Origin: a virus
Virus record (IMG/VR): IMGVR_UViG_3300022661_000179
Length of the DNA stretch: 40,096 nt
Strand: one strand, 5' to 3'
Shown here: one piece after another, positions 14,356 to 27,358 of the stretch
Layout of the letters: each line of letters begins with the position of its first letter
Position numbering within the stretch: position 1 is the stretch's first letter
Made by a program: the position numbers and the translations under genes
The notes under the pieces: model-generated
Database searches by the model: none
Seen by the model: only the letters and a program-made list of their open reading frames with translations
What the model was told of the DNA's origin: nothing

Positions 14356-14511
14356 GCGACTTCTTGAATGAAGTGAGCCGACTACAAGATAGGTTCGGCG
14401 CGACGTTGAAGCAATACATTGGACTGTTTTCAGTAGTGTTGTGGAGTCTAATCTAGGGTTGTGCGGTTTCCACAAGACAGAGTAGGAGAAATCTGAAAGA
14501 AAACGCTCATA

Positions 14512-16396: not shown

Positions 16397-16425
16397 TTGA
16401 TTTTTATAAAAAAATATGATATAAT
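16397..16425 (+). promoter_or_regulatory. conserved promoter copy
   Basis: TTGATT 16397-16402, TATAAT 16420-16425. Confidence 0.7.
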
Positions 16426-16458
16426 ATATCTATAAGATAAAGAAAGGAATGAAATTCA

Positions 16459-17267: not shown

Positions 17268-17344
17268 TTGGGGGTTCTGAATAACGGTCAATTCGCCAGA
17301 CTTTGACTCTGGAGATGGGAGTTCGATTCTCTCACCCCCAGCCA
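17268..17344 (+). tRNA. tRNA-Gln(TTG)
   Basis: loop CTTTGAC; U1-A72; G73; CCA. Confidence 0.8.
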
Positions 17345-17521
17345 CAGTTTCTTCATGCGTTCACAACAGACGCAACCAGCAATCTTTTTTCTTCCCCGCT
17401 CATTTTAGAGGAATTTGAAAGTGCGTCTAGTATATATTCCCCTTTAGTCTATCCGATCTTTGGTCAGAAAAGATTTATGACTCACTCTTATTTTTCATAT
17501 ATAAATGAAAGGAGTGGTTAT

Positions 17522-17926
17522 ATGACTACTAAGGTTTGTACTAAATGTAAATTAGAATTGCCAATAGAAGAATTTCATTGGCGTAATAAGGCTGCTGGAA
17601 CACGCAGATCAGAATGTAAAAAATGCCATAATGCAACAATGCGAAAAGATTATGATAAAAAACGAGAATAGGTTGATGCTATGAAATTTTCTTTTGGTGG
17701 TTGTTAGAAATGTGGCTATAATAAATGCATTGAAGCATTAGATTTTCATCATCGAAACCCCGATGAAAAAGAATATGATATTGCTCAAATGATTAGAAAT
17801 CATAGAACACAAGAAGCTATTGCCCAAGAGATGCAAAAATGTGTTATTTTATGTGCTAATTGTCATCGAGAATTTCATTTTTTAGAAAGAAATAAGGGTA
17901 TTTCTATTGATGAATATTTATTATAA
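17522..17926 (+). CDS. HNH endonuclease with two in-frame TAG codons (17669-17671, 17705-17707)
   Basis: AAGGAG RBS then ATG 17522; one continuous frame reads ...KKRE-TAG-VDAMKFSFGGC-TAG-KCGYNKC...LDFHHRNP...CANCHREFH; the second TAG sits inside the conserved GG-C-x-x-C-G-Y zinc-knuckle. Confidence 0.7.
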
Positions 17927-17932
17927 AAATAT

Positions 17933-18008
17933 TGGGGGTTAGTTCAATTGGCAGAGCGTCAGATTCTGACTCTGAAAGTTAAAGGTTCAAGTCCTTTACC
18001 CCCAGCCA
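17933..18008 (+). tRNA. tRNA-Gln(CTG)
   Basis: loop TTCTGAC; acceptor tgggggt/accccca; G73; CCA. Confidence 0.8.
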
Positions 18009-18923: not shown

Positions 18924-18952
18924 TTGATTTTATAAAAAAAATATGATATAAT
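18924..18952 (+). promoter_or_regulatory. conserved promoter copy
   Basis: TTGATT 18924-18929, TATAAT 18947-18952. Confidence 0.7.
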
Positions 18953-18970: not shown

Positions 18971-19037
18971 AAGGCAGACACAGCAATCATAATCCATTTC
19001 TTGACGCTCCATTCTAGAAAACGATTAAACCTGCCTT
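18971..19037 (+). ncRNA. ACAGCAA-module (short, no tRNA-like domain)
   Basis: aaggcag (18971-18977) pairs with ctgcctt (19031-19037); ACACAGCAA at 18978-18986; starts in the promoter leader. Confidence 0.45.
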
Positions 19038-19726
19038 GAAGCAACCGATAACTGATAACCCTCCGCTGAGTAAGCCTGGTGGTTGCGATTTCGACTAATA
19101 TCAGTTTGAACCTTGAAAAGTTTTGCACCTCGGTGAAGAACGAATACCATCGTGCCGAGATCCTCATCCTGCCCGTGGGCGCCAGGAGTCCGAAAAGCAA
19201 TTTACTGACGATAGCCAGTAATAGGTAGATCTGCATACAGTGATGTGTGCGGGCCGCCCTCCGAACGGAGGGGCCTGGATGGAGAGGAGTGCAAAGATAA
19301 TCGCATCTAAAGATACCGTCTTATCGCTCTCGCAATAGACGCCCCTGTGGGGAATAAGCTATGTTAGGGATTAGCTGGTGACTGTTTCAAACCATAGTAT
19401 ACCAATAAGAGAGTCTGCGTTGATGTCCGAGTAATCGGGCTATAAGGTAAGGTCGGGGTACGAGTAGCCCTATCGCAATGACGAGAAGAAAGAAATTGCT
19501 GTTTAGTGTATTTGGGTAATAGCAAAAATTATCAAATAATTCTGAATGGCGGGTGAAAGTTACAGGTAAACAACCCTGTGTAGGACTTGGCTCCAGTAGG
19601 AGCTGGGGCAAGAAGTTTAAGGGTCGCTCCCTTGAGCTCAGACTTGTCTCCCTAGTGATCGAATATAGGTGAAGGTTATAGAGAGTATGTCGAAGGACAG
19701 CAAAACTTTTCAAAGTTCTCAATATG

Positions 19727-20199: not shown

Positions 20200-20607
20200 A
20201 TGTTATTTGAAACTAATCGTGATAAGGGTCGCGCTGGTATGGCGATAGCAATCGCTTATTTTGGAGCCAATGGATATACAGTAAATGTGCCTCTAAATGA
20301 TACTCAATGGTATGATTTAGTTATTGAAAAAGACGGTGAGTTCAAAACCGTTCAATGTAAAGCAACTGGCAGTGCTGATAATGTAGTTTCTATGAAGAGT
20401 GCGGGTGGCACAAAAGGTAGTGTTTATGATTCTGTACTAAATCATCCTGTTGATTATTTGTTCTGCTTAGATGGCGAAATGCATATGTATGTTATTCCAG
20501 TGCAAGATTTGCGAGATTATGGAGTAAGTAAACAAATTTCTTTGCGTACTCAAAAATCTGCAAATGGACAAGGTTTCCAAACTTATCAATATATGGTGTC
20601 TTTGTAA
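20200..20607 (+). CDS. PD-(D/E)xK nuclease-like protein (Hjc/restriction-endonuclease-like fold)
   Basis: motif YDLVIEKDGEFKTVQCK (D...ExK); similar in pattern to the 25026-25448 ORF. Confidence 0.5.
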   Translation: MLFETNRDKGRAGMAIAIAYFGANGYTVNVPLNDTQWYDLVIEKDGEFKTVQCKATGSADNVVSMKSAGGTKGSVYDSVLNHPVDYLFCLDGEMHMYVIPVQDLRDYGVSKQISLRTQKSANGQGFQTYQYMVSL

Positions 20608-23065: not shown

Positions 23066-23332
23066 ATGGCTAGTATTAAAGTTTTTTAGAATAATCGCTA
23101 CCAATCTCATTATGTTCAATTTGTAGCAGACACTGCAGATGATGTAAAACTTTTAAAGGTAGCAGAACTCGCTATGGGTAGTGAAGTATATGTTATTCAA
23201 GAAAAAAGAACTTATATTCTTGGTAGCGACAAACTCTGGTATTCTAAGGCGGTAAATGATGACGCAATTATTGAGTGTGATTGCGTTGAAGAATCTACTA
23301 TCTGGGAAGATTTGCCTCAACCCAATAATTGA
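23066..23332 (+). CDS. candidate small ORF with in-frame TAG at 23087-23089
   Basis: ATG 23066 after gaaaggaaaatgagaaaat; 88 codons open across one TAG; the only other in-frame start is ATG 23174. Confidence 0.3.
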
Positions 23333-23508: not shown

Positions 23509-23583
23509 TCCGGTGTCGTTCAATGGCTAGGACGGCGGGCTCTAACCCCGCATATCTCTGTTCGAGTCAGAGCGCCGGTGCCA
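23509..23583 (+). tRNA. tRNA(CUA), amber-reading suppressor-type tRNA #1
   Basis: D-arm gttc-aatggcta-ggac; anticodon arm gcggg-CTCTAAC-cccgc; T-arm ctctg-TTCGAGT-cagag; 1-72 mismatch; G73; CCA. Confidence 0.65.
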
Positions 23584-23658
23584 TGGGGGTTAGCGTAGCG
23601 GTAGCGCGGCGGTCTCTAAAACCGTTGTGGCTGGGTTCGAATCCCAGGCCCCCCGCCA
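23584..23658 (+). tRNA. tRNA(CUA), amber-reading suppressor-type tRNA #2 (Gln-like acceptor tgggggt, G73)
   Basis: D-arm gcgt-agcggta-gcgc; anticodon arm gcggt-CTCTAAA-accgt; T-arm ctggg-TTCGAAT-cccag; U1.C72; CCA; abuts the 3' end of the previous tRNA. Confidence 0.65.
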
Positions 23659-24946: not shown

Positions 24947-25494
24947 GCGCCGCTAGCTCAGCAGGTTTCAGAGCACCGCCCTTTTCACACAGGAGAAGAA
25001 AGTATTTTCCCAGGAGGTGAATTAAGTGTTAAACACTCATTTCCAAGGTGAAATTACTGAACTCCAAGTTGCCGAATCGTTTTTGACATTGGGGTATCAA
25101 GTGTGTAAGCCTTTGGTATCTGATAGTCGCTATGACTTTATCGTTGATATCAACCATCAGTTATATCGTATTCAAGTAAAGACATCATCATTGAGTGAAG
25201 ATGAAGATTATATTGAGTTTAAGACTCAATCCTCTCATACAAATACTCAAAAGACAGTATATCAATCTTATTCTGCGGATGACATTGATTATTTTGCTAC
25301 AATGCATAATCATCAGTGCTATCTTGTTCCAGTTGATAAAGCTGGTAGTCGTTCTTGTAGATTGCGTTTAAAGCCTACAAAGAATGGTCAGACTAAGAAT
25401 ATCAATTTCGCAAAAGATTTCAAACTTGAAGATACTTTCATCGAATGACTGAAAAAGGCGGGTGTCCTGGGTTCGAATCCCAGGCGGCGCACCA
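24947..25494 (+). tRNA. split tRNA-Lys(UUU)-like gene: 5' half 24947-24985, 3' half 25457-25494, ~476-nt intervening sequence
   Basis: gcgccgc-ta-gctc-...-gagc-a-ccgcc-CTTTT... and ...AA-ggcgg-gtgtc-ctggg-TTCGAAT-cccag-gcggcgc-a-cca; acceptor 7/7 and anticodon stem 5/5 complementary across the gap. Confidence 0.55.
25026..25448 (+). CDS. PD-(D/E)xK nuclease-like protein encoded inside the tRNA-Lys intervening sequence
   Basis: ORF track; motif YDFIVD...QVKT; paralog-like to the 20200-20607 ORF. Confidence 0.55.
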   Translation: MLNTHFQGEITELQVAESFLTLGYQVCKPLVSDSRYDFIVDINHQLYRIQVKTSSLSEDEDYIEFKTQSSHTNTQKTVYQSYSADDIDYFATMHNHQCYLVPVDKAGSRSCRLRLKPTKNGQTKNINFAKDFKLEDTFIE

Positions 25495-27306: not shown

Positions 27307-27358
27307 TTCTGCTTAGCAGGTTATAAATATACTATAAAAATTGAAAGGATGTTTAATT

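Follow-up and report, generated by a model that had tools for sequence, protein, structure and literature searches.

In-frame amber codons in an HNH endonuclease gene of a tRNA-rich phage and their probable decoding as glutamine by phage suppressor tRNAs

The HNH gene and its in-frame TAG codons

The window analyzed here is the whole 40,096-nucleotide stretch of the IMG/VR virus record IMGVR_UViG_3300022661_000179, which is part of a large tailed phage, most likely infecting Firmicutes. Between positions 7079 and 27037 it contains 42 tRNA genes (ARAGORN), all on the plus strand, and among them lies an HNH endonuclease gene (17522 to 17926, plus strand; 134 codons, GC content 0.30) whose frame is interrupted by two TAG codons. 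An AGGAG Shine-Dalgarno motif (17510 to 17514, plus strand), read from the sequence, stands 7 nucleotides 5' of the ATG. The immediate upstream neighbor is a tRNA-Gln(UUG) gene (17269 to 17344, plus strand), and a tRNA-Gln(CUG) gene (17933 to 18008, plus strand) begins 6 nucleotides past the HNH stop codon, an adjacency repeated in three related loci (L001, L002 and L003). Two tRNA(CUA) genes, at 23509 to 23583 and 23584 to 23658 on the plus strand, are located 5.6 kb downstream. A sequence-only reading had taken the interrupted frame as a sign of amber reassignment, and this proposal is now backed by the continuity of homologs across the TAGs, by exchanges between TAG and glutamine codons, by a code test over 80 kb and by the two tRNA(CUA) genes. 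As judged from these comparisons, phage-encoded amber suppression very probably decodes TAG as glutamine (genetic code 15).

The single frame runs from ATG 17522 through TAG 17669 to 17671 (codon 50) and TAG 17705 to 17707 (codon 62) to the TAA at 17924 to 17926, exactly as had been read. Its product comprises an N-terminal Cys4 zinc ribbon followed by a Cys4-HNH core, with motifs in the order C61xxC64, LDFHH and C111ANC114HREFH. It matches PHROG 2255 ('HNH endonuclease', E=9.5e-36) in one stretch, amino acids 2 to 126, that spans both TAGs; PHROG 3106, also annotated 'HNH endonuclease', matches with E=1e-22, and the motif C..LC.NCHRE.H aligns to the HNH of McrA in the PDB (E=1.3e-4). More than 170 homologs were found, many of about 135 amino acids, and 70 of them are uninterrupted across both TAG positions. 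In these 70, the residues H76, H77, N113, H115 and H119 are invariant, and so are C61, C64, C111 and C114; together with PHROG 2255, this upholds the identification of the frame as an HNH endonuclease with Cys knuckle, LDFHH and CANCH, and it places the second TAG inside a conserved CxxC, between C61 and C64. Without read-through, the gene falls into pieces of 49, 11 and 72 amino acids, and no start codon lies between the second TAG and the HNH core. No homolog has its HNH domain divided.

The TAG positions were compared among four alleles, namely that of the window and those of L001, L002 and L003, which come from independent metagenome assemblies of different samples. At codons 50, 62 and 102, the window has TAG, TAG and CAA, L001 (93% amino acid identity to the window) has CAA, TAG and TAG, L002 (98%) has TAG, CAG and CAA, and L003 (about 71%) has TAG, CAA and, at the third position, neither a glutamine codon nor TAG. 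Close relatives therefore carry glutamine codons, CAA or CAG, at both TAG positions of the window, the residue that had been expected there. All four alleles end in TAA, with zero other stops or frameshifts. When TAG is counted as glutamine, the ratio of non-synonymous to synonymous substitution rates (dN/dS) for the three copies is 0.036 (dS 0.52), 0.051 (dS 0.12) and 0.14 (dS 1.46). The TAG/Gln swaps, the absence of frameshifts and the low dN/dS indicate that the gene is not a pseudogene.

In the wider family, the TAGs are clearly internal in two HNH relatives (L016 and L017), whose loci each also contain a tRNA(CUA), and about 8 of 39 HNH-family viral loci hold standard-code relatives whose gene terminates in TAG. 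A tRNA gene is found within 300 nucleotides of the HNH-family gene in 27 of the 39 loci, many of which have 10 to 35 tRNAs per 20 kb. From sequence comparison, then, the gene at 17522 to 17926 is best described as an intact, selected, free-standing endonuclease of a family that typically lies between phage tRNA genes. The stored ENA protein of L001 carries glutamine at its TAGs, which implies that the depositor's gene caller used a TAG-sense code; ENA gene calls for related contigs read through TAG, and JGI calls are fragmented.

TAG as a codon in other genes of the phage

The record IMGVR_UViG_3300018495_000174 (43,953 bp) overlaps positions 1 to 4576 of the window with 0 mismatches, giving a merged sequence of 80,219 bp. 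On this sequence, genetic codes were compared by means of a codon-usage gene caller followed by dynamic-programming selection. With TAG as sense (code 15), the coding density is 0.662 and the total coding score 4849, versus 0.627 and 4755 with the standard code (code 11), and the two controls give 0.632 and 4588 (TGA as sense) and 0.631 and 4246 (TAA as sense). Over 80 kb of the same phage, TAG as sense is therefore favored. The densities are conservative for code 15, because the caller mis-started the HNH gene and missed the tail-fibre-like gene described below, two genes whose codon usage departs from that of the training genes. In the leftmost 9 kb, the packaging block, density rises from 0.658 to 0.859 with TAG as sense, both controls being unchanged. 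For the window alone it goes from 0.543 to 0.554, with controls at 0.554 and 0.560, so that the codes are not discriminated, nor are they by the stop-to-stop totals of open reading frame length in the window under alternative stop sets. As a refutation test, density confined to the window is thus uninformative, because the gain equals that of the controls.

The minus-strand packaging block has genes for five proteins, which together contain 15 TAGs in frame and whose profile matches span them. These are a portal (PHROG 2739, E=5e-78; 2 TAGs), a 118-amino-acid homing endonuclease between portal and terminase (window-relative -35701 to -35345; PHROG 9084, E=1.3e-26; 2 TAGs), the large terminase TerL (PHROG 15503, E=2e-56, PHROG 24618, E=4e-50, and PHROG 2, E=2e-21; 4 TAGs), a 398-amino-acid protein of PHROG 3314 (function unknown, E=4e-56; 4 TAGs) and a sigma factor homolog (window-relative -32353 to -31301; PHROG 5767, E=3.7e-50; 3 TAGs). 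The annotation of the last comes from PHROG 5767 only, a Pfam scan not having confirmed it; at its C-terminus it has a zinc ribbon similar to the N-terminal part of the HNH protein. Opposite the 15 TAG sites, 46 related viral loci show Gln 132 times, TAG 73, Lys 57, Glu 45 and Arg 41, and the in-frame TAGs of these relatives align in turn with Gln (203), Lys (45) and Glu (38). The alignments of the block's proteins to the 46 loci contain no in-frame TAA or TGA. At the two sites of the 118-amino-acid endonuclease, 23 relatives have Gln 15 and TAG 8, and Gln 12, TAG 7, Lys 3 and His 1, respectively; at TerL codons 52 and 99, homologs have R or K.

Inside the window, three further genes have TAGs that homologs cover, and a fourth is tentative. 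The tail-fibre-like gene (32618 to 33715, plus strand, 365 codons), with TAGs at 33137 to 33139 (codon 174) and 33392 to 33394 (codon 259), has a Shine-Dalgarno motif and ATG at its start, and TAATAA followed by a hairpin/T-run terminator at its end. Codon 174 falls within the conserved motif PALIVGG..T.xH.E.D.NEI; homologs align straight over this TAG and have A (25), Q (8) or T (7) opposite it, the closest motif variants having Q. In a gene of PHROG 18912 (5221 to 6615, plus strand, 464 codons), the TAG at 5287 to 5289 (codon 23) lies within a conserved N-terminus: 104 of 120 homologs cover it, and 36 homologs begin at their own residue 1 opposite MYEDIK. Since, in addition, no standard start codon exists between this TAG and TTG 5353, ATG 5221 must be the start of the gene. 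The N-terminal extension had weak support from the paralog alone (E=0.12) and was settled by the database search. Homologs have K (49) versus Q (20) at codon 23. A Cys-rich gene (39100 to 39396, plus strand, 98 codons; TAG 39133 to 39135, codon 12) occupies an otherwise empty gap of 380 nucleotides. Its homologs' residue ~13 aligns onto the first residue after the TAG, Cys4 and Pro5 upstream of the TAG are nearly invariant, and Gln stands opposite the TAG itself in the closest homolog. The tentative gene (23066 to 23332, plus strand, 88 codons; TAG 23087 to 23089, codon 8) is proposed from coding potential only, with no homolog among the related loci compared. Overall, besides the HNH gene, at least nine genes of this phage are shown to use TAG as a sense codon.

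As a terminator, TAG is found 0 times among about 57 confident genes (about 28 in the window, 24 from L008, upstream of it, and 5 from L007, downstream), each of which ends in TAA or TGA. Over the 80 kb, the code-11 calls with a terminal TAG are, apart from three, pieces of genes that TAGs interrupt; of the three, two are short and marginal, and the other seems to be a genuine TAG stop. The genes fall into two codon-usage classes. The TAG-using class (the late block, the HNH gene and the tail fibre) has a GC content of 0.30 to 0.36, prefers CAA over CAG and has TAG at 18 to 50% of Gln positions, while the TAG-free class, 99 plus-strand genes with a GC content of 0.46, prefers CAG. The HNH gene has the composition of the TAG-using class and a position among genes of the TAG-free class. 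TAG is concentrated in late-type genes, namely those for the portal, TerL and the tail fibre, no lysis genes having been recognized.

Suppressor tRNAs, inserted residue and rival explanations

The two tRNA(CUA) genes called by ARAGORN score 48.7 and 50.1 bits with the Rfam tRNA model. Suppressor 1 (23509 to 23583) has a U1:U72 pair, G73, an encoded CCA and canonical D and T loops. Suppressor 2 (23584 to 23658) has the 5' acceptor strand UGGGGGU and G73, both in common with the two tRNA-Gln genes of the window. A tRNA(CUA) starting with U1 and ending in G73-CCA recurs in the tRNA-array loci L012, L014, L016 and L017. The arrays of L012, L014 and L017 also contain CUA tRNAs of 91 to 97 nucleotides with a long variable arm, beside ordinary ones of 75 nucleotides. 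ARAGORN labeled both window genes tRNA-Pyl, a tRNA of atypical architecture; their ordinary GG D-loops and GTTCGA T-loops speak against this, the label reflecting the CUA anticodon only, and no pyl genes occur among the annotated proteins.

When the five informative TAG columns of the window are pooled, Gln has a log-odds of +7.5. Trp comes next with +1.9, a pseudocount artefact given that 0 homologs have Trp at those columns. We infer that glutamine is the residue inserted at TAG. Full-length HNH endonuclease would then be made only if the phage tRNA(CUA) encoded at 23509 to 23658 reads both TAGs, in competition with host release factor 1. In Escherichia coli, the supE tRNA-Gln(CUA) inserts Gln at UAG in just such a competition with release factor 1. 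The two cases are alike in that an anticodon-CUA tRNA meets UAG against release factor 1; they differ in that the suppressors here are phage-encoded and exist as two divergent copies, in a genome purged of TAG stops where TAG is sense in late genes.

Several observations weigh against decoding of the HNH gene by a phage glutamine suppressor. Scans of the HNH product with Pfam (including PF01844) and NCBIfam gave no significant match, so that its assignment relies on PHROGs, motif invariance and structure, and in a Foldseek search against the PDB HNH nucleases were top-ranked with modest fold-search scores that were not significant. Distant homologs have Lys, Ala or Glu no less often than Gln at several of the TAG columns, and part of the Gln residues in the databases may derive from TAGs that the ENA gene caller translated. 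The tRNAs are ambiguous as well. Suppressor 1 shares U1 and G73 with the tRNA-Gln genes of the window, but its acceptor stem is different and is without the G2-C71 and G3-C70 pairs; the two tRNA(CUA) genes are only 60% identical; and among the window tRNAs the suppressors best match those for Met, Trp and Glu (0.63 to 0.68 identity), tRNA-Gln being no closer. By sequence alone, a Gln identity is not assignable to them. Neither a release factor nor an aminoacyl-tRNA synthetase gene was found among the proteins scanned. Finally, a 56-amino-acid, Cys-rich protein with an acidic tail (window-relative -14170 to -14000, plus strand) is the only well-scoring call in the 80 kb that seemingly ends at TAG. 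Read-through would add 21 codons to it and overlap the next gene, and it may genuinely end in TAG, as a tolerated terminator in a recoded genome.

A first alternative is that TAG remains mainly a stop, with inefficient read-through, the two TAGs of the HNH gene acting as an attenuator that keeps an endonuclease that might be toxic down to trace amounts during the whole infection. The host presumably retains release factor 1, and this view would also accommodate both the negative search for a phage release factor or synthetase and the complete avoidance of TAG by some 99 genes. However, essential high-copy genes need read-through too, with 2 TAGs in the portal, 4 in TerL and 2 in the tail fibre, and the share of Gln positions taken by TAG in their codon-usage class speaks in the same direction. 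Because structural and packaging genes depend on TAG read-through, decoding has to be efficient at least late in infection, and we consider the attenuator unlikely.

TAG might also be sense without meaning glutamine, or glutamine only: Lys or Glu could be inserted, or the two dissimilar tRNA(CUA) could be charged differently, resulting in ambiguous decoding, with pyrrolysine as a special case. It is true that Lys is the commonest residue at some columns (codon 23 of the gene at 5221) or shares them with Arg (TerL codons 52 and 99), that the two suppressors differ in their acceptor stems, and that some related loci have the CUA tRNAs with a long variable arm. Yet in HNH alleles that are 93 to 98% identical, TAG swaps solely with CAA or CAG, and the pooled counts given above put Gln before Lys by 132 to 57 and by 203 to 45, in line with the log-odds. 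Pyrrolysine is further opposed by the canonical loops of both tRNAs and by the lack of pyl genes among the annotated proteins. In other phages, proteomics confirmed TAG-to-Gln decoding (PMC9523058). A residue other than glutamine thus appears improbable.

Decay of the gene is a third scenario, in which two C-to-T nonsense mutations inactivated a selfish HNH element whose frame only looks intact. Homing endonuclease genes often decay, CAG to TAG is a single transition, and the HNH relative in L018, where TAG takes the place of the conserved LDFHH aspartate and a suppressor tRNA is lacking within 20 kb, may truly have become a pseudogene. In the gene studied here and its close relatives, however, dN/dS stays between 0.036 and 0.14 over a dS of up to ~1.5, and the four alleles, free of frameshifts and of TAA or TGA within the frame, have their TAGs at different Gln positions. 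In-frame TAGs in at least nine other genes, portal and terminase among them, and the presence of suppressor tRNAs make this scenario very hard to sustain. Lastly, a split HNH protein made by re-initiation after each TAG, to which a zinc ribbon able to fold alone (amino acids 1 to 49) would lend itself, or errors of assembly or sequencing, can practically be dismissed: no start codon precedes the HNH core after the second TAG, this TAG lies in the zinc-binding CxxC, all homologs are single chains, the same TAGs occur in the independent assemblies L001 to L003 from different samples, and the overlap with the other IMG/VR contig shows 0 mismatches over 4.6 kb.

Gene context and relation to other recoded phages

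A nearly invariant sigma70-type promoter, whose sequence begins with TTGATTTTTATAAAAAAATATGWTATAAT, is present in 9 copies in the window at up to 3 mismatches (0 expected by chance), starting at 2681, 7288, 7749, 8060, 11069, 16397, 18924, 23671 and 25667, all on the plus strand. This 46-nucleotide element consists of TTGATT, 17 nucleotides, an extended -10 TGnTATAAT and then GTAAGATAAAGAAAGG. Weaker copies are found at 29827, 33759 and 36354 (plus strand), and four further copies upstream of the window. Over the 80 kb, 15 copies are counted at up to 5 mismatches, on the plus strand only, with none in the TAG-rich minus-strand packaging block. The copy closest upstream of the HNH gene, at 16397 to 16442 on the plus strand (TTGATT-17-TGnTATAAT), is separated from it by no predicted terminator, which suggests a common transcript for HNH and the two tRNA-Gln genes. 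At 23329, 5' of the suppressor tRNAs, there is also a strong promoter-like site.

If phage suppression of TAG is the mode of decoding, the HNH gene would be transcribed with its two flanking tRNA-Gln genes from this early-type promoter, and its TAGs would delay or limit endonuclease synthesis until suppressor tRNA accumulates. Because the sigma factor homolog with 3 TAGs adjoins the recoded portal and terminase block, the code switch might even gate late transcription. The plus-strand sigma70 promoter would drive the tRNA array and adjoins both tRNA(CUA) genes; accumulating suppressor tRNA would first allow translation of the TAG-bearing sigma factor, which would then activate late transcription, and the same gate would restrain both homing endonucleases, including the HNH enzyme encoded at 17522. 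The idea that amber codons are the upstream switch of the entire late programme in this way is a tentative one, conceivable though somewhat doubtful.

The surroundings of the HNH gene fit a mobile free-standing homing endonuclease, a function predicted from the following comparisons. L001 and the window are 93% identical over HNH and about 90 nucleotides upstream, with flanks that are ~75% identical or unalignable, and L001 is without the upstream tRNA-Gln(UUG). No HNH-less allele or empty site was recovered among the related loci. T4 SegB and the HNH enzymes of the T5 tRNA region are homing endonucleases in phage tRNA gene clusters, and the gene studied here, also small and free-standing, likewise has tRNA genes of a phage array on either side. 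SegB is a GIY-YIG enzyme, whereas the gene here encodes an HNH protein, for which homing is a prediction.

Other nuclease-type genes lie nearby. Two paralogous small genes inside the tRNA array, at 20200 to 20607 (ending just 5' of tRNA-Tyr) and 25026 to 25448, both on the plus strand, belong to PHROG 5018, and their L001 homolog has the Pfam domain PDDEXK_5; they may be further nuclease-type mobile elements. The window's second HNH-containing protein, a GmrSD_N + HNH protein (28579 to 29769, plus strand; PF03235, E=2e-17, and PF01844, E=2e-10), is TAG-free and thus not recoded. Immediately 5' of it is the gene of an EcoRI-type adenine methyltransferase (27341 to 28564, plus strand; PF13651, E=1.3e-98), also TAG-free.

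The tRNA array also holds structured RNAs and tRNA-like genes. A full-length ROOL RNA (19105 to 19718, plus strand; RF03087, 327.8 bits versus a gathering score of 99.1) stands directly 3' of the promoter copy at 18924. The syntenic locus L001 is without the entire segment of ~750 nucleotides (window 18973 to 19722), so that ROOL is present in one relative and absent from the other. ROOL is a phage-associated RNA that occurs near tRNA islands and forms an RNA nanocage (PMC12286853). A drum RNA (14401 to 14511, plus strand; RF02958, 78.1 bits versus a gathering score of 43) is flanked by tRNA-Thr(AGU) and tRNA-Val(UAC). Just 5' of a promoter copy, a partial match to the OLE RNA model RF01071 (25564 to 25651, plus strand; 53.4 bits versus a gathering score of 50, model positions 437 to 594 only) may represent a fragment of such an RNA, a substructure shared with it or a spurious match. 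Directly after tRNA-Ala(UGC), a tRNA-like gene (9131 to 9204, plus strand; 47.7 bits with the Rfam tRNA model) has no encoded CCA and a U3:G70 pair, and ARAGORN assigned it no anticodon ('ag'); just past it, a weak tRNA-model match (9218 to 9285, plus strand, 31.2 bits) was not called by ARAGORN. Further downstream, an 826-amino-acid protein (33835 to 36315, plus strand) matches the Major Vault Protein shoulder domain (PF11978, E=1.7e-24) and a Vault_3 repeat (E=4.9e-07). About 2.3 kb 5' of its gene is that of a 519-amino-acid protein (29944 to 31503, plus strand) of PHROG 850 ('RNA-binding protein', E=7.6e-130) with Pfam domains DUF2828 and DUF7788. It is unusual for one phage region to combine ROOL, drum and 42 tRNAs with a vault-like shell protein and an RNA-binding protein.

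As to lineage, TerL places this phage among large phages of Firmicutes. The best TerL match is an unannotated human-gut 'Bacteriophage sp.' record (59%), and TerL shares 44.5% identity over 97% of its length with Phage Phass-1. Relatives of TerL come from phages of Enterococcus, Bacillus, Geobacillus and Lactococcus, bacteria that use the standard code. A megablast search with 13 kb of the window against deposited phages gave no nucleotide-level match. The Phass-1 genome (phAss-1, OQ749652) has 36 tRNAs, three tRNA-SUP-CTA genes and 41 TAG-containing open reading frames, including those of TerL, portal and tail fibre, and the human-gut phages of the Phassvirus group have 28 to 36 tRNA genes and 2 to 3 tRNA-SUP-CTA genes, read TAG as Gln, and had no dedicated synthetase found (PMC10607447). 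The phage studied here is likewise a large Firmicutes-type tailed phage, with at least 42 tRNAs, 2 tRNA(CUA) and TAG in TerL, portal and tail fibre. These phages are its nearest described kin. The relation is distant, however, and the present phage adds ROOL, drum, the gene similar to Major Vault Protein and a very uniform promoter. Its recoded open reading frames, ~15 to 18 of ~120 in 80 kb of an incomplete genome, are seemingly below the 28% of phAss-1 (PMC10607447).

In code-15 phages, the recoded codon is enriched in late genes, suppressor tRNAs are phage-encoded and TAG stops are depleted (Borges et al., bioRxiv 10.1101/2021.08.26.457843). Peters et al. confirmed Gln at TAG by proteomics, and used a gain in coding density above 5-10% as the rule for calling recoded phages (PMC9523058). 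The phage here resembles the code-15 gut phages (crAss-like, Lak, Garnet and Topaz, among others) in having TAG in structural and packaging genes and not in early genes, and fragmented code-11 calls in the late module; it differs from crAss-like and Lak phages in lineage and presumed host phylum. In TGA-recoded phages, a homing endonuclease among the early genes preferentially uses the recoded stop, which was read as delaying its synthesis to late infection (bioRxiv 10.1101/2021.08.26.457843). Similarly, both free-standing endonucleases here, the HNH enzyme of 17522 and the 118-amino-acid PHROG 9084 protein, carry 2 TAGs each. The endonuclease of Borges et al., in contrast, is intron-encoded and concerns TGA-to-Trp, whereas the HNH gene is free-standing, between tRNA genes, and would involve TAG-to-Gln.

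TAG-to-Gln recoding in phages is already well established, and no new mechanism is put forward here. What the present case adds to the recoded phages is a tRNA-rich lineage of Firmicutes type that is distantly related to Phassvirus. It also bears on annotation: standard-code calling breaks the HNH gene, the tail fibre, two more genes of the window, the portal, the terminase and the sigma factor. Density-based screens would miss the 40-kb window, because the gain of ~1-3% is far below their thresholds of 5-10% (PMC9523058); sparse, gene-class-specific recoding of this kind is best detected through homology across stops together with the detection of suppressor tRNAs. The HNH alleles show neatly, on a small scale, how TAG and CAA/CAG replace each other in near-identical copies under purifying selection. 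They extend to TAG, and to free-standing endonucleases, the prior observation that selfish endonuclease genes of recoded phages carry the recoded stop.

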